Shown here: piece after piece, positions 2,017 to 16,370 of the stretch
Layout of the letters: each line of letters begins with the position of its first letter
Position numbering within the stretch: position 1 is the stretch's first letter
The notes under the pieces: generated by a model
Seen by the model: the letters and a program-made list of their open reading frames with translations, nothing else
Told to the model about the DNA's origin: nothing
Databases searched by the model: none
Translations under genes and position numbers: made by a program
Source: Octopus sinensis
Lineage: Eukaryota
Assembly: GCF_006345805.1 (NCBI RefSeq)
Contig: NW_021825143.1
Coordinates: forward strand, 1-16,620
Direction of reading: 5' to 3'
DNA: 16,620 nucleotides

Positions 2017-2030
2017 GTTATCTTTATTTA

Positions 2031-3381
2031 GGCGGCGAGCTTGCAGAAACGTTAGCACGCCGGGCGAAATTCTTAGCGGTATTTCGTCTGCCGTACGTTC
2101 TGAGTTCAAATTCCGCCGAGGTCAACTTTGCCTTTCATCCTTTCGGGGTTGATTAAATAAGTACCAGTCACGCACTGGGGGTTGATATAATCGCCTTAAT
2201 CCGTTTGTCTGTCCTTGTTTGTCCTCTCTGTGTTTAGCCCCTTGTGGGTAGTAAAGAAATAGGTATTTTGTCTGCCGCTACGTTCTGAGTTCAAATTCCG
2301 CCGAGGTCAACTTTTATCTTTCATCTTTTCGGGGTCGATTAAATAAGTACCAGTCACGCACTGGGGGTTGATATATCGAATTAATCCGTTTGTCTGTCCT
2401 TCTTTGTCCTCTCTGTGTTTTTAGACCCTTGTGGGTAGTAAAGAATAGAAATAGGTATTTCGTCTGCTGTTACGTCCCTGAGTTCAAATTCCGCCGAGAT
2501 CGACTTGCCTTTCATCCTTTCGGGGTCGATTAAATAAGTACCAGTCACCCACTGGGGTCGATATAATCGACTTAATCCCTTTGTCTGTCTTTGTTGTCAC
2601 CTCTGTGTTTAGCCCCTTGTGGGTAGTAAAGAAATAGGTATTTCTTCTGCCGTTAATGTTCTTGGGTTCAAATTCCGCCGAGGTCGACTTTGCCTTTCCT
2701 CCTTTCGGGGTCGATTAAATAAGTACCAGTTACCCACTGGGGTCGATGTAATCGACCTTAAACCATTTGTCTGTCCTTGTTGTCCTCTCTGTGTTTAGCC
2801 CCTTCTGGGTAGTAAAGAAATAGGTATTTCGTCTGCTGTTACGTCCTGAGTTCACATTCCGCCCGAGGTCGACTTTGCCTTTCATTCAATCATTTCGGGG
2901 TTGACTTAAATAAAGTACCAGTTACGCACTGGGGTCGATGTAATCGACTTAATCCGTTTGTCTGTCCTTGTTTGTCCCCTCTGTGTTTAGCCCCTTGTGG
3001 GTAGTAAAGAAATAGGTATTTCGTCTGCCGTTAAGTGTTCTGGGTTCAAATTCCGCCGATCGACTTTGCCTTTCATCCTTTTCGGGATCGTAAATTAAGT
3101 ACCAGTTACGCACTGGGTCGATGTAAATCGACTTAATCCTTTGTCTGTCCTTGTTTGTCCCCTCTGTGTTTAGGCCCTTGTGGGTAGTAAAGAAATAAGT
3201 ATTTCGTCTGCCGTTAAGTGTTCTGGTTCAAATTCCGCCGAGGTCGACTTTGCCTTCCATCCTTTCGGATCGATAAATTAAGTACCAGTTACGCACTGAG
3301 GTCTATGTATCGACTTAATCCCTTTGTCTGTCCTTGTTTGTCCCCTCTGTGTTTAGCCCCCTTGTGGGTAGTAAAGAAATA
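2031..3381 (+). repeat. Meta-like SINE multimer: one tRNA-derived head plus 7 tandem bodies of about 186 bp
   Basis: Head GGCGGCGAGCTTGCAGAAACGTTAGCACGCCGGGCGAAAT... occurs once. Units start GTATTTCGTCTG at about 2079, 2263, 2455, 2638, 2824, 3016 and 3199. Each unit has B box GTTCAAATTCC and GCCTTTCATCCTTTCGGGGTCGAT..AAGTACCAG, resembling the Meta-SINE domain. Confidence 0.9.
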
Positions 3382-4597: not shown

Positions 4598-4719
4598 TGT
4601 AGAAACACTGCCAGATAAGAATGGAACCTGGTGGCAGCCTCCTGGCTTCCCAGACCCCGGTCGAACCGTCCAACCTATGCTAGCATGGAAACGGACGTTA
4701 AACGAAGATAGATGATATA

Positions 4720-4774
<55 letters not shown>

Positions 4775-5300
4775 CATGTAGCACCCACTACACTCACGGA
4801 GTGGTTGGTGTTAGGAAGGGCATCAAGCTGTAAAACTCTGCCGCCAGATTCAGACTGGGGCCTGGTGCAGCCTTCTGGCTTCCCAGACCCCAGTCAATCC
4901 CGTCTAACCTTTGCTATCATGGAAAACGTACGTTAAACGATGATATTATATGTTAGCACTCACTACACTCTTGGAGTGGTTGCGTTAGGAAGGGCATCCA
5001 GCGTAGAAACCCTGCCAGATCAGACTGGGGCCTGGTGGCAGCCTTCTGGCATCCCAGATCCCCCCCGTCGAACCGTCCAACCCACGCTAGCATGGAAAGC
5101 GGACGTTAAACGATGATATGATGATATATATATATATCACGGAGTGGTTGGCGTTAAAGGGCATCCAGCTGTAGAAACAATGCCAGATCTACTGGGGCCT
5201 GGTGCAGCCTCGGGCATCCCAGACCCTGGTCGAACCGTCGAACCCACGCTAGCAAGGGAAGCGGACGTTAAACGATGATATGATATGATATATTTATATA

Positions 5301-5347
<47 letters not shown>

Positions 5348-5521
5348 GTAGCACCCTACACTCACGGAGTGTTGGCGTTAGAAGGAAGGGCTTCCAGCTG
5401 TAGAAACCTTCTGCCAGATCTGACTGGGGCTTGGTGCAGCCTCTGGCATCCCAGACCTTGGTCGAACCGTCCAAACTATGCTAGCATGGAAAACGGACGT
5501 TAACGATGATAAATAATATAG

Positions 5522-5563
<42 letters not shown>

Positions 5564-5790
5564 ATATATATATATTCTATATATATTATATATTATAGTA
5601 TATTATATATATATATATGTATATGTAGCACCCAACACTCACGGAGTGGGTGGGGTTAGGAAGGTCATCAAGCTGTAGAACACTGCCAGATCACACTGGG
5701 GCCTGGTGCAGCCCCCCCCTCCTGTTTCCAAAACCTCAGTCGAACCGTCCAACCCGTGCTAGCACGGAAACGCATTAACGATGGTGGATG
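4598..5790 (+). repeat. Six tandem copies of a retroposon 3' segment of about 170 bp (RTE-like tail), mostly separated by (TA)n tracts
   Basis: Unit GTAGCACCCACTACACTCACGGAGTGGTTGGCGTTAGGAAGGGCATCCAGCTGTAGAAAC...GCTAGCATGGAAAGCGGACGTTAAACGATGAT at about 4598 (truncated), 4777, 4952, 5137, 5347 and 5623. The GTTAGGAAGGGCATCC motif and (GAT)n tail suggest RTE dependence (inference). Confidence 0.8.
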
Positions 5791-6172
5791 ATGATGATGG
5801 TGATGGTGATGGTGATGTTAATAATAATAATGAGGATTATGATGAAATGATGATGATGACGATGATGATGATTATGATGACGATGATAATACGACGACGA
5901 CGATTATGACAGACGATGATGACGATGATACGATGAAGACGATGATGATGATTATGATGATTATGATTATGATGATGATGATGACGAATGATGATGATGA
6001 TGATGATTCTGTGGTTGATGAACGATGATTATGATGATGATGATGATGATGATGTTGATGAGGATGAGGATGATGAGGAATGATGACGATTGATGATTAT
6101 TGATGATTATGATGATGATGATGATGACGACGACGACGACGAGATGACGATGATGATGATGACAATGATGAT
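5782..6172 (+). repeat. Imperfect (GAT/GAC)n trinucleotide tract of about 390 bp
   Basis: Directly visible and contiguous with the GATGAT tail of the last upstream element copy. Confidence 0.95.
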
Positions 6173-6231: not shown

Positions 6232-6361
6232 ATCGCGAGTGAATGATGGATCAAAGGCTGTGAAACTTGGAGATTTTGGATTAGCAACCGATGCGAAACA
6301 ACCTTGTTCGTTGTTTGCGGAACCCCTACTTATGGGCCCCGGATATTCTTTCAGAAAAATG
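6232..6361 (+). CDS. DCLK: Internal exon of a doublecortin-like (DCLK-family, CAMK group) Ser/Thr kinase covering subdomains VII-VIII, frameshifted in this sequence
   Basis: Polypyrimidine tract plus acceptor TTTTTTCAG ending at 6231, and donor GTAAGT at 6362. Translation with two 1-nt corrections gives [21 protein letters not shown]/(L)FVVCGTPTY/(V)APDILSE, versus the DCLK1-type sequence recalled as [40 protein letters not shown]. Confidence 0.8.
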
Positions 6362-6362
6362 G

Positions 6363-6376
6363 TAAGTGTTTTATAT
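6363..6376 (+). other. Left target-site duplication of the 8.15-kb SINE array (overlaps the splice donor)
   Basis: TAAGTGTTTTATAT here versus TAAGTGTTTATAT at 14531-14543 (one T fewer in the homopolymer). Confidence 0.8.
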
Positions 6377-6377
6377 A

Positions 6378-9300
6378 TATTTCTTTACTACCCCACAAAG
6401 GCTAAACACAGAGGGGACAAACAAGACAGACAAACGGATTAAGTCGTTACATAGACCCCAGTGCGAAACTGGTACTTAATTTATCGACCCCGAAAGGATG
6501 AAAGGCAAAGTCGACCTCGGCGGAATTTGAACCCAGAACACTTAACGGCAGACGAAATACCTATTTCTTTACTACCCACAAGGGATAAACACAGAGGGGA
6601 CAAACAAGGACAGACAAAGGATTAAGTCGATTACATCGACCCCAGTGCGTAACTGGTACTTAATTTATCGACCCCGAAAGGATGAAAGGCAAAGTGGACC
6701 TGGCGGAATTGGCACCAGACGTAGCGGAGGCGCCTTGACTTCTCTCTACAGTACCAATTTACTACCCACAAGGGGAAAACACAGAGGGGACAACAAGGAC
6801 AGACAAAGGGATTAAGTCGATTACATAGACGCCAGTGCGTAACTGGTACTTAATATATCGACCCCGAAGGATGAAAGGCAAAGTGGACCTCGGCGGATTT
6901 GAACCGAGAACACTTAACGCCAGACGAAATACCTATTTCTTTACTACCACACAAGGGGCTAACAAGAGGGGACAAACAAGGACAGACAAAGGGATTAAGT
7001 CGATTACATAGACCCCAGTGCGTAACTGGTTACTTAATTTTCGACCCCGAAAGGATGGAAGGCAAAGTCGACCTCGGGCGGAATTTGAACCCAGAACACT
7101 TAACGGCAGAACGAAATACCTATTTTCTTTACTACCCCAGGGATAAACACAGAGGAGACAAACAAGGACAGACAAATGGATTAAGTCGATTACATAGACC
7201 TCAGTGCGTAACTGGTACTTAATTTATCGAGCCCCGAAAGGTGAAGGCAAGTAGTGACCTCGCGGAATTTGAACCCAGAACACTTAACGGCAGACGAAAG
7301 CTATTTCTTTACTACACACAAGGGTCTAAACACAGAGGAGACAAACAGGACAGACAAAGGGATTAAGTCGATTACATCGACCCCAGTGCGTAAGTGGTAC
7401 TTTAATTTATCGACCCCGAAAGGATGAAAGGCAAAGTGACCTCGGCGGAATTGAAACCGAGAACACTTACGGCAGACGAAATACCTATTTCTTTACTACC
7501 CACAAGGGGCTAAACACAGAGGAGACAAACAAGGACAGACAAGGATTAAGAAGTCGATTACATAGACCCCAGTGCGTAACTGGTACTTAATTTATCGACC
7601 CCGAAAGGATGGAAAGGCAAGTCGACCTCGGCGGAATTTGAACCCAGAACACTTAACGGCAGACGAAATACCTATTTCTTTCTACGCACAAGGGGCTAAA
7701 CACAGAGAAGGACAAACAAGGACAGACAAGGTATTAAGTCGATTACATAGACCTCAGTGCGTAACTGGTACTTAATTTATCGATCCCGAAGGATGAAAGC
7801 AAAGTCGATCGGCGGAATTTGAACCCAGAACACTTAACGGCAGACGAAATACCTATTTCTTTACTACCCACAAGGGGCTAAACACAGAGGGGACAAACAA
7901 GGACAGACAAAGGGATTAAGTCGATTACAATAGACCTCAGTGCGTAACTGGTAGTTAATTTATCGATCCCGAAAGCATGAAAGGCAAAGTCGATCGGCGG
8001 AATTTGAACCCAGAACACTTAAACGGCAGACGAATACCTATTTTTCTTACTACCCACAAGGGCTAAACACAGAGGGGACAAACCAGGACAGACAAAGGAT
8101 TACGTCGATTACAAAGACCCAGTGCGTACTGGTACTTAATTAATCGATCCCGAAAGGATGGAAGGCATGTCGACCTCGGCGGAATTTGAACCAAGAACAC
8201 TTAACGCAGAACGAAATACTTATTTATTTACTACCCACAAAGGGCTAAACACAGAGGGGACAAACAAGGACAGACAAAGGTATTAAGTCGATTACAATCG
8301 ACCCAGTGCGTAACTGGTACTTAATTTATCGAATCCAAATGATGAAGGCAAAGTCGATCGGCGGAATTTGAACCCATAACACTTAACGGCAGACAAATAC
8401 TATTTCTTTACTACCACAAGAGGCTAAACACAGAGGGGACAAACAAGGACAGACAAGGATAAGTCGATTACATAGACCTCAGTGCGTAACTGGTACTTAT
8501 TTATCGACCCCGAAACGATGAAAGGCAAAAGTCGATCGGCGGAATTTGAACCCAGAAACTTAACACGGCAGACGAAATACCTATTTCTTTTACTACCCCC
8601 CCAAGGGCTAAACACAGAGGGGACAAACAAGGACAGACAAAGGGATTAAGTCGTTACATCGACCCCAGTGCGAACTGGTACTTAATTTATCGACCCCGAA
8701 AGATGTAAGGCAAAGTCGACCTCGGCGGAATTTGAACCCAGAACACTTAACGGCAGACGAATACCTATTTTTCTTTACTACCCACAAGGGGAAAAACACA
8801 GAGGGCAAACAAGGACAGACAAAGGGATTAAGTCGATTACATAGACCTCAGTGCGTAACTGGTACTTAATTTATCGACCCCGAAAGGATGAATGGCAAAG
8901 TCGATCGGCGGAATTTGAACCCAGAACACTTAACGGCAGACGAAATACCTATTTCTTTACTACCCACAAGGGGCTAAACCAGAGGAGACAAACAGGACAG
9001 ACAAAGGGATTAAGTCGATTACATCTCGACGCCAGTGCGTAACTGGTACTTAATATATCGACCCCGAAAGGATGAAAGGCAAAGTGGACCTCGGCGGAAT
9101 TTGAACCGAGAACACTTAACGGCAGACGAAATACCTATTTCTTTACTACCCACAAGGGGCTAAACACAGAGGGGACAAACAAGGACAGACAAAGGGATTA
9201 AGTCGATTACATAGACCCCAGTGCGTAACTGGTACTTAATTTATCGACCCCGAAAGGATGGAAGGCAAAGTCGACCTCGGCGGAATTTGAACCCAGAACA

Positions 9301-12300
9301 CTTAACGGCAGACGAAATACCTATTTCTTTACTACCCACAAGGGGATAAACACAGAGGAGACAAACAAGGACAGACAAATGGATTAAGTCGATTACATAG
9401 ACCTCAGTGCGTAACTGGTACTTAATTTATCGACCCCGAAAGGATGAAAGGCAAGTGGACCTCGGCGGAATTTGAACCAGAACACTTAACCGGCAGACGA
9501 AATACTTATTTCTTTACTACACACAAGGGGCTAAACACAGAGGAGACAACAAGGACAGACAAAGGGATTAAGTCGATTACATCGACCCCAGTGCGTAAGT
9601 GGTACTTAATTTATCGACCCCGAAAGGATGAAAGGCAAGTGGACCTCGGCGGAATTTGAACCGAGAACACTTAACGGCAGACGAAATACCTATTTCTTTA
9701 CTACCCACAAGGGCTAAACACAGAGAGACAAACAAGGACAGACAAAGGGATTAATCGATTACATAGACCCCAGTGCGTAACTGGTACTTAATTTATCGAC
9801 CCCGAAAGGATGGAAGGCAAAGTCGACCTCGGCGGAATTTGAACCCAGAACACTTAACGGCAGACGAAATACCTATTTCTTTACTACGCACAAGGGGCTA
9901 AACACAGAGAGGACAAACAAGGACAGACAAAGGTATTAAGTCGATTACATAGACCTCAGTGCGTAACTGGTACTTAATTTATCGATCCCGAAAGGATGAA
10001 AGGCAAAGTCGATCGGCGGAATTTGAACCCAGAACACTTAACGGCAGACGAAATACCTATTTCTTTACTACCCACAAGGGGCTAAACACAGAGGGGACAA
10101 ACAAGGACAGACAAAGGGATTAAGTCGATTACATAGACCTCAGTGCGTAACTGGTAGTTAATTTATCGATCCCGAAAGCATGAAAGGCAAAGTCGATCGG
10201 CGGAATTTGAACCCAGAACACTTAACGGCAGACGAAATACCTATTTCTTTACTACCCACAAGGGGCTAAACACAGAGGGGACAAACAAGGACAGACAAAG
10301 GGATTAAGTCGATTACAAAGACGCCAGTGCGTAACTGGTACTTAATTTATCGATCCCGAAAGGATGGAAGGCAATGTCGACCTCGGCGGAATTTGAACCA
10401 AGAACACTTAACGGCAGACGAAATACTTATTTATTTACTACCCACAAGGGGCTAAACACAGAGGGGACAAACAAGGACAGACAAAGGGATTAAGTCGATT
10501 ACATCGACCCCAGTGCGTAACTGGTACTTAATTTATCGATCCCGAAAGGATGAAAGGCAAAGTCGATCGGCGGAATTTGAACCCAGAACACTTAACGGCA
10601 GACGAAATACCTATTTCTTTACTACCCACAAGAGGCTAAACACAGAGGGGACAAACAAGGACAGACAAAGGGATTAAGTCGATTACATAGACCTCAGTGC
10701 GTAACTGGTATTTAATTTATCGACCCCGAAACGATGAAAGGCAAAGTCGATCGGCGGAATTTGAACCCAGAACACTTAACGACGGCAGACGAAATACCTA
10801 TTTCTTTACTACTACCCACAAGGGGCTAAACACAGAGGGGACAAACAAGGACAGACAAAGGGATTAAGTCGGTTACATCGACCCCAGTGCGAAACTGGTA
10901 CTTAATTTATCGACCCCGAAAGGATGTAAGGCAAAGTCGACCTCGGCGGAATTTGAACCCAGAACACTTAACGGCAGACGAAATACCTATTTCTTTACTA
11001 CCCACAAGGGGAAAAACACAGAGGGGACAAACAAGGACAGACAAAGGGATTAAGTCGATTACATAGACCTCAGTGCGTAACTGGTACTTAATTTATCGAC
11101 CCCGAAAGGATGAATGGCAAAGTCGATCGGCGGAATTTGAACCCAAACACTTAACGGCAGACGAAATACTTATTTCTTTACTACTCACAAGGGCTAAACA
11201 CAGAGGAGACAAACGGACAGACAAAGGGATTAAGTCGATTACATCGACGCCATGCGTAACTGGTACTTATTAATTTATCGACGCCGAAAGGATGAAAGCA
11301 AAGTGGACCTCGGCGGAATTTGAACCCAGAACACTTAACGGCAGACGAATACCTATTTCTTTACTACCCACAAGGGGCTAAACACAGAGAGACAAACAAG
11401 GACAGATAAAGGGATTAAGTCGATTACATCGACCCCAGTGCGTAACTGGTACTTAATTTATCGACCCCGAAAGGATGAAAGGCAAAGTCGACCTCGGCGG
11501 AATTTGAACCGAGAACACTTAACGGCAGACGAAAACCTATTTCTTTACTACCCACAAGGGCTAAACAGAGGAGGCAAACAAGACAGACAAAGGGATTAAG
11601 TCGATTACATAGACCCCAGTGCGTAACTGGTACTTAATTTATCGACCCCGAAAGGATGGAAGGCAATGTCGACCTCGGCGGAATTTGAACCCAGAACACT
11701 TAACGGCAGACGAAATACCTATTTCTGTAATACCCACAAGGGGCTAAACACAGAGAGGACAAACAAGGACAGTCAAAGGTATTAAGTCGATTACATAGAC
11801 CTCAGTGCGTAACTGGTACTTAATTTATCGATCCCGTAAGGATGAAAGGCAAAGTTAATCGGCGGAATTTGAACCCAGAACACTTAACGGCAGACGAAAT
11901 ACCTATTTCTTTACTACCCACAAGGGGCTAAACCCAGAGGGACAAACAAGGACAGACAAAGGGATTAAGTCGATACATAGACCTCAGTGCGTAACTGGTA
12001 CTTAATTTATCGACCCCGAAAGGATGAAGGCAAAGTCGATCGGCGGAATTTGAACCCAGAACACTTAACGGCAGACGAAATACCTATTTCTTTACTACCC
12101 ACAAGGGGCTAAACACAGAGGGGACAAACAAGGAGACAAAGGGATTAAGTCGATTACATCGACCCCAGTGCGAAACTGGTACTTAATTTATCGACCCCGA
12201 AAGGATGAAAGGCAAAGTCGACCTCGGCGGAATTTGAACCCAGAACACTTAACGGCAGACGAAATACCTATTTCTTTACTACCCACAAGGGGATCAACAC

Positions 12301-14530
12301 AGAGGGGACAAACAAGGACAGACAAAGGGATTAAGTCGATTACATAGACCTCAGTGCGTAACTGGTACTTAATTTATCGACCCCGAAAGGATGAAAGGCA
12401 AAGTCGATCGGCGGAATTTGAACCCAGAACACTTAACGGCAGACGAAATACTTATTTCTTTACTACTCACAAGGGGCTAAACACAGAGGAGACAAACAAG
12501 GACAGACAAAGGGATTAAGTCGATTACATCGACCCCAGTGCGTCACTGGCACTTAATTTATCGACCCCGAAAGGATGAAAGGCAAAGTGGACCTCGGCGG
12601 AATTTGAACCCAGAACACTTAACGGCAGACGAAATACCTATTTCTTTACTACCCACAAGGGGCTAAACACAGAGGAGACAAACAAGGACAGACAAAGGGA
12701 TTAAGTCGATTACATCGACCCCAGTGCGTAACTGGTACTTAATTTATCGACCCCGAAAGGATGAAAGGCAAAGTGGACCTCGGCGGAATTTGAACCGAGA
12801 ACACTTAACGGCAGACGAAATACCTATTTCTTTACTACCCACAAGGGGCTAAACACAGAGGAGACAAACAAGGACAGACAAAGGGATTAAGTCGATTACA
12901 TAGACCCCAGTGCGTAACTGGTACTTAATTTATCGACCCCGAAAGGATGGAAGGCAAAGTCGACCTCGGCGGAATTTGAACCCAGAACACTTAACGGCAG
13001 ACGAAATACCTATTTCTTTACTACCCACAAGCTGCTAAACACAGAGAGGACAAACAAGGACAGACAAAGGTATTAAGTCGATTACATAGACCTCAGTGCG
13101 TAACTGGTAGTTAATTTATCGATCCCGAAAACATGAAAGGCAAAGTCGATCGGCGGAATTTGAACCCAGAACACTTAACGGCAGACGAAATACCTATTTC
13201 TTTACTACCCACAAGGGGCTAAACACAGAGGGGACAAACAAGGACAGACAAAGGGATTAAGTCGATTACATAGACCTCAGTGGTTAACTGGTACTTAATT
13301 TATCGATCCCGAAGTTTGGAAGGAAAAGTCGACCTCGGCGGAAGTTGAACCCAGAACTTAAACGGCAGACGAATACTTTATTTCTTTACTACCCACAAGG
13401 GGCTAAACACAGAGAGGATAAACAAGGACAGACAAAGGGATTAAGTCGATTACATCGACCCCAGTGCGTAACTGGTACTTAATTTATCGATCCCGAAAGG
13501 ATGAAAGGCAAAGTCGATCGGCGGAATTTGAACCCAGAACACTTAACTGCAGACGAAATACCTATTTCTTTACTACCCACAAGGGGCTAAACACAGAGGG
13601 GACAAACAAGGACAGACAAAGGGATTAAGTCGATTACATAGACCTCAGTGCGTGACTGGTACTTAATTTATCGACCCCGAAATGATGAAAGGCAAAGTCG
13701 ATCGGCGGAATTTGAACCCAGAACACTTAACGGCAGACGAAATACCTATTTCTTTACTACCCACAAGGGGCTAAACACAGAGGGGACAAACAAGGACAGA
13801 CAAAGGGATTAAGTCGATTACATCGACCCCAGTGCGAAACTGGTACTTAATTTATCGACCCCGAAAGGATGAAAGCAAAGTCGACCTCGGCGGAATTTGA
13901 ACCCAGAACACTTAACGGCAGACGAAATACCTATTTCTTTACTACCCACAAGGGGCTAAACACAGAGGGGACAAACAAGGACAGACAAAGGGATTAATCG
14001 ATTACATCGACCCCAGTGCGTAACTGGTACTTATTTATCGATCCCGAAAGTGGAAGGCAAAGTCGACCTCGGCGGAATTTGAACCCAGAACACTTAACGG
14101 CAGACGAAATACCTATTCTTTACTACCCACAGGGGCTAAACACAGGGGACAAACAAGGACAGATAAACGGATTAAGTCGATTACATCGACCCCAGTGCGT
14201 AACTGGTACTTAATTTATCGACCCCGAAAGGATGAAAGGCAAAGCGGACCTCGGCTGAATTTGAACCCAGAACACTTAACGGCAGACGAAATACCTATTT
14301 CTTTACTACCCACAAGGAGCTAAACACAAAGGGGACAAACAAGGACAGACAAAGGGATTAAGTCGATTACATCGACCCCAGTGCGTAACTGGTACTTAAT
14401 TCATCGACCCCGAAAGGATGGAAGGCAAATCGACCTCTGCGGAATTTGAACCCAGAACACTTAACGACAGACGAAATACGGCTACGCATTTCGCCCGGCG
14501 TGCTAACCATTCTGCCAGCTCGCCGCCTTC
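6378..14530 (-). repeat. Meta-like SINE-derived satellite: one tRNA head (about 14479-14530) plus 44 tandem bodies of 184-186 bp
   Basis: The + strand consensus TATTTCTTTACTACCCACAAGGGGCTAAAC...GAACACTTAACGGCAGACGAAATACC is 186 nt, and 44 unit starts were counted by eye. It is the reverse complement of the 2031-3381 unit. The head GGCGGCGAGCTGGCAGAATGGTTAGCACGCCGGGCG is present only at the right end. Confidence 0.95.
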
Positions 14531-14543
14531 TAAGTGTTTATAT
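14531..14543 (+). other. Right target-site duplication of the 8.15-kb SINE array
   Basis: TAAGTGTTTATAT matches 6363-6376. Confidence 0.8.
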
Positions 14544-14792
14544 GGCCTAGTGGTTAGAGCAGCAGACTAGTGGTCGTGGGATCGCAGGTTCGAATCTCAG
14601 ACTGGGCGACGTGTGTGTTTATGATCGAAAACACCTAAGCTCCACGCGGCTCCGGCAGAAGGTAATGGCAAAACTTCTGCTGACTCTTTCGCCACAACTT
14701 TCTCTCACTCTTTCCTCCTGCATCTTGCAGCTCACCTGCGATGGACTGGCGTCCCGTCCAGGTGGGGAACCTATACGCCGAGGAAACTGGGA
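14542..14792 (+). mobile_element. tRNA-derived V-like SINE, 3'-truncated
   Basis: A box TGGCCTAGTGG and B box GGTTCGAATCTC. CCTGCGATGGACTGGCGTCCCGTCCAGG resembles the V-SINE domain. Confidence 0.8.
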
Positions 14793-15348: not shown

Positions 15349-15406
15349 TTTTACTTGGTTCAAACATACGTATATAGACACACATCAACCAAGTCACATC
15401 AACCAT

Positions 15407-15761
15407 AGGGGTAGGAGTGGCTGTGTGGTAAGTAGCTTGCTTACCAGCCACGTGGTTCCGGGTTCAGTCCTACTGCGTGGCACCTTGGGCAAGTGTCTTC
15501 TACTATAGCCTCGGGCCGACCAAAGCCTTGTGAGTGGATTTAGTAGACGGAAACTGAAAGAAGCCCGTCGTATATATGTATATAGGCGTAGGAGTGGCTG
15601 TGTGGTATGTCTCTTGCTTACCAACCACATGGGTCGGGTTCAGTCCCACTGCGTGGCATCTCGGGCAAGTGTCTTCTGCTATAGCCCGCGCCGACGACTA
15701 ATGCCTTGTGAGTGGATTTGGTAGACGGGTACTGAAAGAAGGCTGTTGTATATATAATATA

Positions 15762-15792
<31 letters not shown>

Positions 15793-16370
15793 GCGCAGGA
15801 GTGGCTGTGTGGTAAGTAGCTTGCTTACCAACCACATGGCTGGTTCTGGGTTCAGTCCCACTGTATGGCACCTTGGGCAATTGTCTTCTACTATAGCCTC
15901 GGGCGACCCCAAAGCCTTGTGAGTGGACTTAGTAGACGGAAACTGAAAGAAGCCCGTCGTATATATGTATATAGGCGTAGGAGTGGCTGTGTCGTATGTC
16001 TCTTGCTTACCAACAAAATGGGTCGGGTTCAGTCTCACTGCGTGGCACCTTGGGCAAGTGTCTTCTACTATAGCCTCGGGCCGACCAATGCCTTGTGAGT
16101 GAATTTGGCAGACGGAAACTGAAAGAAGCCTGTCGTATATATGTATATATATATGTGTGTATATGTGTTTGTGTGTCTGTGTTTGTCCCCCTAGCATTGC
16201 TTGACAACCGATGCTGGTGTGTTTACGTCCCCGTAAATTAGCGGTTCGGCAAAAGACACCGATAGAATAAGTACTGGGCTTACAAAGAATAAGTCCCGGG
16301 GTCGATTTGCTCGACTAAAAAGGCGGTGCTCCAGCATGGCCGCAGTCAAATGACTGAAACAAGTAAAGAC
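15407..16370 (+). mobile_element. Tandem cluster of the CORE-like SINE: three 5' halves (about 15407, 15584, 15792) plus one full-length copy (about 15974-16370)
   Basis: Same sequence as 83-915, with units joined through (TA)n. Possible degenerate TSD: AAGTCACATCAACC (15391) and AAGTCAGATAACC (16372). Confidence 0.9.

Follow-up and report, generated by a model that had tools for sequence, protein, structure and literature searches.

In-place growth of a 44-unit SINE array in an octopus DCLK intron, with probable seeding by insertion of the family into its own copies

Tandem arrays of short interspersed elements (SINEs) that carry a single head have been described in bivalves (PMC11481361) and squamates (PMC10702118). 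Here, we analyze such an array in an intron of a DCLK-type kinase gene of Octopus sinensis. It lies on contig NW_021825143.1 (C1614) of the 2.72-Gb assembly GCF_006345805.1, and the whole of this contig, 16,620 nucleotides of octopus intronic DNA, is referred to as the window. The closest known arrangement is the TSD1-(SINE)n-TSD1 structure of Scapharca broughtonii (PMC11481361), likewise a mollusc tRNA-related SINE with one full head, head-truncated repeats, and one pair of target-site duplications (TSDs), often within introns. The clam arrays hold 4-15 units, about 3% of copies are tandem or palindromic, and the 3' tail of the first and middle units is incomplete. In the octopus, every unit has a complete tail, multimers account for 15 of 28 sampled elements, and the longest array has 116 units. 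In the text of that report, the multimers are ascribed to unequal recombination between TSDs and not to self-insertion. The squamate satellites sSat1-3 (PMC10702118) resemble the octopus array in several ways: the repeated units are shorter than the SINE, the terminal one is longer and extends to the SINE end, copy numbers vary at orthologous loci, and long arrays are homogenized. The main text of that study contains neither "TSD" nor "target site" and links no fixed junction to the tail of the element itself; its authors explain the seed by unequal recombination and raise same-locus insertion in one sentence only.

Other systems share single features with the array. The Patella satellite PcH-sat (179 bp, related to the Lottia Nin-SINE; PMC11121367) is also a mollusc tandem unit of about 180 bp from a Nin-type SINE; unlike the octopus array, it is pericentromeric, makes up as much as 10% of the genome, lacks boxes A and B, and has no known boundaries or TSD in the published description. 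Jerboa Dip/B1 multimers and dimeric SINEs such as Alu (via PMC10702118) are alike in that about half of the copies are multimers; there, full-length copies stand in tandem or fixed dimers move as a unit, whereas in the octopus bodies are added inside a one-headed copy. R1 elements in 28S genes (PMC3414825) form head-to-tail arrays by repeated target-primed insertion at one site in a host gene, their copies separated by a 14-bp duplication. In the octopus, the SINE itself is the target, and the duplication merges with the unit. Other site-specific long interspersed elements (LINEs) likewise build head-to-tail arrays by repeated target-primed insertion. One main octopus SINE class is tRNA-Deu (PMC8967140), a source whose main text contains neither "tandem" nor "satellite"; further background is given in PMC4824008, PMC4758252, and PMC5804259. 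In the literature, we found no report of SINEs seeding arrays by in-register self-insertion at family scale (Repbase or Dfam entries may describe the family), nor of the octopus pattern of such SINE arrays or of a paralog series between one TSD pair.

The anatomy of the octopus array is thus already known from clams and squamates. Our data show that the array grew in place, and we consider it probable that the starting SINE was a monomer on arrival and acquired a second body through in-register insertion of a further family copy. The array and its immediate surroundings are composed as follows.

6232-6361, plus strand: DCLK-type kinase exon, DFG to APE region, about amino acids 457-501 of P0002; frame 2 reads KAVKLGDFGLATDAKQP
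6362-6367, plus strand: intact 5' splice donor GTAAGT, overlapping the left TSD copy (from the sequence, with the exon end placed by tblastn), matching the donor consensus
6363-6376, plus strand: left TSD copy TAAGTGTTTTATAT, the 13-mer with one extra T (direct-repeat match)
6377-6378, minus strand: short AT tail beyond the element 3' end, matching that of subfamily siblings
6379-14481, minus strand: 44 tandem units of about 184 bp, each with B box, central domain, and 3' tail (unit splitting)
6757-8950, minus strand: units 31-42, a 12-unit block repeating units 19-30, the noisier copy (best lag 12; 0 of 300 shuffles reach the lag score)
8951-11171, minus strand: units 19-30, the other copy of the 12-unit block (same comparison)
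14482-14528, minus strand: single head, the 5' half of the tRNA-like region and the one 5' segment in the array, with a match to the A-box consensus at 14507-14517
14529-14530, minus strand: two extra letters in the gap between head and target site, where the family usually has 0-6
14531-14543, plus strand: right TSD copy TAAGTGTTTATAT (direct-repeat match), in the same place in C29, C6575, and C9293

Tandem Repeats Finder reported an array at 6378-14479 with a period of 184, 44.0 copies, and 91% matches. A reading made earlier from the sequence alone (the sequence-only reading) had proposed one head, 44 bodies, and a direct repeat of 13-14 bp, and we recovered 44 units, one A-box head, and a 13-bp duplication. 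The 42 middle units measure about 184 bp compared with about 232 bp for a monomer, and the first unit is lengthened by the head. We looked for extra internal heads and found none in the array: the 50-bp 5' segment (14481-14530) occurs there once, its sole other strong match in the window belonging to a separate element (2030-2070), and the A box is present in 0 of the 44 units. The claim that the tRNA-derived head is unique holds for this A-box half only, as a B-box match is found in 41 of 44 units. As also proposed, the outer end of the array coincides with the SINE 3' end, to which we add the 2-nt AT tail. Units are joined by the family-wide junction AAAGAAAT-A-GGTAT.

The array shares with the squamate satellites at least four middle units shorter than the SINE and a longer terminal unit (PMC10702118), and with the clam arrays a single complete head and a pair of TSDs enclosing the whole set of units; tail truncation of the first and middle units is absent, as units reach position 184 and are cut at the 5' end only. 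With regard to a subtelomeric location, the single placed copy sits 1.18 Mb from the start of a 17-Mb scaffold, the others being unplaced. The sequence-only reading saw in the array the birth of satellite DNA. What we see is an 8-kb variable array (about 21 kb at most among its copies) within an intron, short of the very long heterochromatic arrays of classical satellites, and its passage to a true satellite would be a further step.

The boundaries are those of one retroposition event. The TAAGTGTTTTATAT/TAAGTGTTTATAT pair comprises the only such direct-repeat matches in the window. Nine of nine left-junction copies elsewhere have the 13-mer without the extra T of the window, which is therefore likely a sequencing error of this noisy contig; the right 13-mer is exact in three of six complete copies and slightly changed in the other three. 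Flanking repeats were found in 47 of 79 family members and in only 0-2 in five shuffled pairings, so the repeat around the array fits the TSD pattern of its family beyond chance. The left copy starts at intron position +2, with the element antisense and 14 nt behind the intact donor. The TAAGTGTT of the unit is the reverse complement of part of the TSD; we took this for chance, as it is a subfamily trait seen on all large scaffolds.

Growth between these boundaries is documented by other copies of the same site. The exon is 95% identical to Octopus bimaculoides DCLK2, in agreement with the gene assignment made earlier; it is frameshifted in the window contig, likely through sequencing errors, and open in the paralogs. 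Exon and left junction recur on nine other contigs, giving 10 copies in the assembly. Between the same boundaries, we counted 7 units in C6575, 10 each in C481, C9271, and C2478, 13 in C29, 44 in the window, and 116 in C9293; of the three remaining copies, one runs off its contig after at least 5 units, and two are deleted or rearranged. The higher-order period is specific to the copy (12 in the window and 15 in C9293, 0 of 300 shuffles each), and the nearest neighbor of a unit lies in its own array for 31 of 44 units in the window, 105 of 116 in C9293, and 12 of 13 in C29. Because 7 to 116 units with copy-specific blocks stand between the same boundaries, the array lengthened in place once these were set, and no 44-mer was inserted; of the two courses the sequence-only reading had left open, insertion as a multimer or expansion in place, the second holds for this length. 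The longest and shortest arrays, C9293 and C6575, have their first units in common and are likely close relatives, and C9293 shows a higher-order repeat of 7-8 units, with best lag 15.

The element that founded the array can be recognized by its subfamily. A rare 5' signature is carried by 39 of the 44 units and has 87 headed matches genome-wide. The first 16 siblings with this signature, all outside DCLK, are monomers (16 of 16), which makes a monomeric founder likely; 14 of them have ATAT tails, resembling the outer end of the 44-unit array. In the founder, head and body meet at CCGTAT and the tail is ATAT, and the array junction differs from both. Genome-wide, we counted 27,043 exact matches to the junction 23-mer (control, 0); of these, the first 100 listed are mostly dispersed. 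As the junction has no counterpart in the founder, from which slippage would produce it only with a 2-nt loss, and is nevertheless so abundant elsewhere, it was likely imported from a second donor. The term "single SINE insertion" in the sequence-only reading is thus apt for the boundaries and likely an understatement for the array. We also considered the DCLK array as the source of its subfamily; this is unsupported, since the siblings have ATAT tails and another head variant.

Insertion of the family into its own copies has left direct traces. A search for head, unit start, and new head in succession gave 55 two-headed matches. At 7 of 13 loci read, the unit start reappears behind the 3' end of a full element, and the duplicated stretch is exact over 8-20 nt. 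Non-family letters specific to the host copy are present on both sides in L189, L194, and L196 (15, 19, and 20 nt); the host belongs to sister family B in L189, L202, and L203, and L193 has a duplication of the head-position-16 site around the inserted element. To judge from these sequences, self-insertion at the unit start occurs in the family; that it gave rise to most one-headed junctions is our inference. Doubled heads appear unstable, with 4-6 tandem heads at L182, L190, and L197, so collapse may contribute to head loss. As a mirror image of the DCLK array, heads of about 65-76 bp (A box plus unit start) are repeated 4 to about 10 times before one body at L182, L190, L197, and C3430:1365-2207.

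One-headed multimers are common in this family. We sampled 40 tiles of 10 kb (400 kb; 35 at round coordinates and 5 in a SINE-rich stretch of C1), leaving out four headless fragments; the initial 16 Mb of a single scaffold contributed a large share of the family sample. The tiles contained 28 A-tail elements, namely 13 monomers, 11 multimers with the array junction, and 4 multimers joined at head position 16 through a second junction. A TSD surrounds the whole multimer in 21 of 33 cases; the genome-wide tabulation of unit number between TSDs, which had been suggested with the sequence-only reading, is available to the extent of these samples. The second fixed junction fits the AAGAAA tail type and was seen in L160, L168, L170, L179, L193, and L202. 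Among 113 headed elements (tiles plus loci picked by pattern), a core follows an A tail 88 times and the tail of sister family B 0 times, and 11 elements consist of a head, an A body, and a B body. AGGT follows 16 of 53 A ends, often within the TSD.

The bodies within one multimer do not look like copies of each other. In 20 of 20 dimers, the partner lies outside the nearest third of cores, which by itself is a weak signal, because duplicates, too, diverge with age. No first and last unit had two rare non-CpG changes in common (0 of 31 pairs), and three rare changes were shared by 0 of 465 pairs of last units in this sparse sample. Private changes were commoner in the last unit (23 versus 7 of 31 multimers, p = 0.001); first units match monomers in age (p = 0.56), and last units are older (p = 0.001). 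With older last units and no shared rare changes in the 31 multimers, the elements are not fixed dimers of the Alu kind. Near-identical internal neighbors were observed in the long arrays L138, L136, and L118.

We propose three steps that would lead from one insertion to the present array. First, target-primed reverse transcription would have placed one element antisense at intron position +14 and duplicated 13 bp, as the TSD and the siblings suggest. Second, family RNAs ending in A-GGUAU would pair with GGTAT-like targets, a word present at position 49 of every copy, and insertion there would add one body; this step is seen in the family and would apply by extension to the DCLK locus. The missing head could be explained in two ways: either no new head is formed, the cDNA annealing to the target overhang of 10-20 nt that is identical to the unit start, or the head is lost later via collapse of the head duplication of about 65 bp. 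For LINEs, 5' joining is described as either direct or by annealing (PMC4245944), and such identity of the overhang with the unit start is what the annealing route requires; pairing of an RNA tail with its target is known at 3' junctions (PMC6007223). Third, two adjacent units would permit misaligned exchange and block duplication, aided by the multi-copy 3' half of DCLK; variation in count and the blocks are observed, and unequal exchange would be the process behind them.

For the family as a whole, we lean, on balance, toward a SINE that homes into its own copies through a match of its tail word and adds bodies in register without a new head. The junction so formed would template more such tails, and retroposition would nucleate arrays at thousands of loci, the DCLK site with its 7-116 units representing a later stage. 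The first duplication that starts a satellite is usually ascribed to chance recombination; here, the seed step would have a visible signature, comprising the fixed junction, heterodimers, and duplicated target letters in host copies, which can be counted genome-wide. One TSD-bounded site with a 16-fold range in array length could be used to time growth and the formation of higher-order blocks. That many copies of this octopus SINE family are small variable arrays also bears on repeat annotation, intron size, and assembly breaks.

Several observations weigh against seeding by self-insertion or limit the statistics above. At the DCLK site, we saw no empty site and no monomer or dimer stage, so that the first two steps are unseen there, and units were counted in a single assembly that has noisy contigs. 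A non-sibling letter is present in the complete last units examined, where self-insertion predicts a 3' part of sibling type, and a later conversion would be needed; the founder's 5' signature is found on all units including the first, and in C6575 and C9293 donor-like letters appear deeper in the first unit. Two-headed copies are about 500-fold rarer than one-headed junctions (55 versus 27,043, with patterns of unequal stringency), so head loss enters the scheme by inference. Moreover, 5 of the 13 two-headed loci lack a host body behind the insertion, L193 is a position-16 insertion, and L181 may inherit a doubled head. The private-change yardstick penalizes B units, and for A-ending multimers alone the age skew is 11 versus 5 of 16 (p = 0.08). 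Head age follows last-unit age as a trend only (rho 0.30, p = 0.12), as does TSD aging in B-ending hybrids (exact 12-mers in 3 of 16 versus 17 of 36, p = 0.07), and an A-type head end, seen in 0 of 10 B monomers, occurs in 4 of 18 B-ending multimers.

The alternative that survives best involves a second array of the family in the window.

2030-3381, plus strand (opposite to the 44-unit array): separate seven-unit array of the same family with the same junction (Tandem Repeats Finder and sequence matches), a possible exchange partner

Ectopic gene conversion or break repair could have copied the junction in as DNA from a multimer already present, for instance this one about 3 kb upstream, with growth in place thereafter. 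We judge this unlikely and yet count gene conversion as a real rival, since the two inverted arrays have likely exchanged sequence: late units of the smaller array bear the rare signature of the large one in four of five copies typed. Copying would also yield an old host, a younger first unit, and one head without any head loss. An ordinary donor, on the other hand, would have given its own 5' type to unit 2 and the middle units, which have the founder's type, and the two-headed copies with duplicated target letters and the AGGT-starting targets in unique DNA would be left unexplained.

We regard it as distinctly unlikely that the founder itself was retroposed as a short multimer, from a junction-bearing source or by a jump of the reverse transcriptase between two RNAs, in one event with one TSD and growth in place afterward. 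Founder letters on all units agree with this course, as do the multimers with a TSD around the whole and the hybrids with an A-type head end; few units (7 of 44) have a TTTT run on the sense strand, and some of these runs may be errors, which leaves room for short read-through transcripts. The monomeric siblings (16 of 16), the absence of three shared rare changes among last units of the sparse sample, and the greater age of last than of first units all speak against it.

The usual model for SINE-derived satellites, in which the body of the founder would be duplicated locally in tandem, is very improbable as the start of the array. It would be in line with the near-identical internal neighbors of long arrays and with all units here being from one subfamily, but slippage keeps CC or ATAT at the join, and the observed join would then require the 2-nt loss also seen in the 27,043 junctions; at other loci, dimers do not consist of self-copies. 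The junction thus largely refutes local duplication as the seed and leaves it a part in later growth only. That the whole 44-mer was inserted at once, or that most of its length is an assembly artifact, deserves practically no weight: the contig is short, unplaced, and noisy, and its 12-unit block is present twice, so that the count of 44 is as assembled and might shrink to about 32, but an array would remain, and six other complete copies of 7-116 units with their own variants and periods refute one-step insertion.

Growth by exchange would be favored by the copy number of the site. Exon and flank variants distinguish eight versions, which exceed one diploid locus if the assembly represents one animal. 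DCLK exons upstream of amino acid 456 were located on a single contig (C10226) apart from a stray copy on C5, and each exon from amino acid 456 on is present on 4-10 contigs. The contig spanning exon and junction had 48, 23, and 14 times the median depth of the 5-7 other element-end contigs listed in three short-read runs; such a ratio is no copy number, and the element-end controls may be heterozygous. These data make amplification of the 3' half of DCLK likely; no report of a DCLK duplication in octopus was found in the literature searched. An empty site, which the sequence-only reading had expected to be informative, was not encountered: the element end is present in 10 of 10 assembly copies, and no loose end of an empty site appeared among the rows listed for three of three informative runs (three organism codes), each of which has one deep contig from the exon into the element end.

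The contigs with the 3' part of DCLK, half a kinase domain, are C29, C481, C829, C2478, C4560, C6575, C9271, C9293, C9413, C9927, C11570, and C11872. A 95-amino-acid "DCLK2" entry of Octopus vulgaris (P0015) spans just the part from amino acid 456. A head-to-tail junction of the DCLK segment on C11872 was considered and not established; a block of 95-97% identity is suggestive, and a third repeat array confounds it. The lone upstream exon copy (amino acids 313-348, 86-91% identical) lies at C5:115841546-115841653 and shares about 300 bp of flank.

The class of the family is indicated by its general features. ARAGORN and Rfam scans gave no tRNA match for the head, and "tRNA-derived" is based on the internal RNA polymerase III boxes, A once in the head and B in the units. 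Folding of the first monomer is unexceptional (z = -1.58). A 33-mer head pattern has 13,388 exact matches genome-wide, as expected of a high-copy dispersed element, and variable-length TSDs and simple 3' tails (ATATAT, AGGTAT, and AAGAAA) are those of SINEs. The family resembles the Deu/Nin class and may belong to it; the searchable supplements of two papers contained neither the Nin/Deu consensus nor any of three motifs. We found no sign of a host function for the array. Most likely, it is a selfish and nearly neutral passenger, with the splice donor left intact.

Finally, the flanks of the array contain further repeats.

14542-14790, plus strand: a different SINE-like element outside the array, its shortened head abutting the target site; also behind the right junction in the paralogs

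Two other SINE-like families form partial tandem arrays joined via (TA)n at 83-639, 4600-5790, and 15405-16330 of the window, and the collinear blocks around these vary in spacing between DCLK copies. A (GAT)n run of 128 copies occupies 5787-6172, just upstream of the exon's acceptor.

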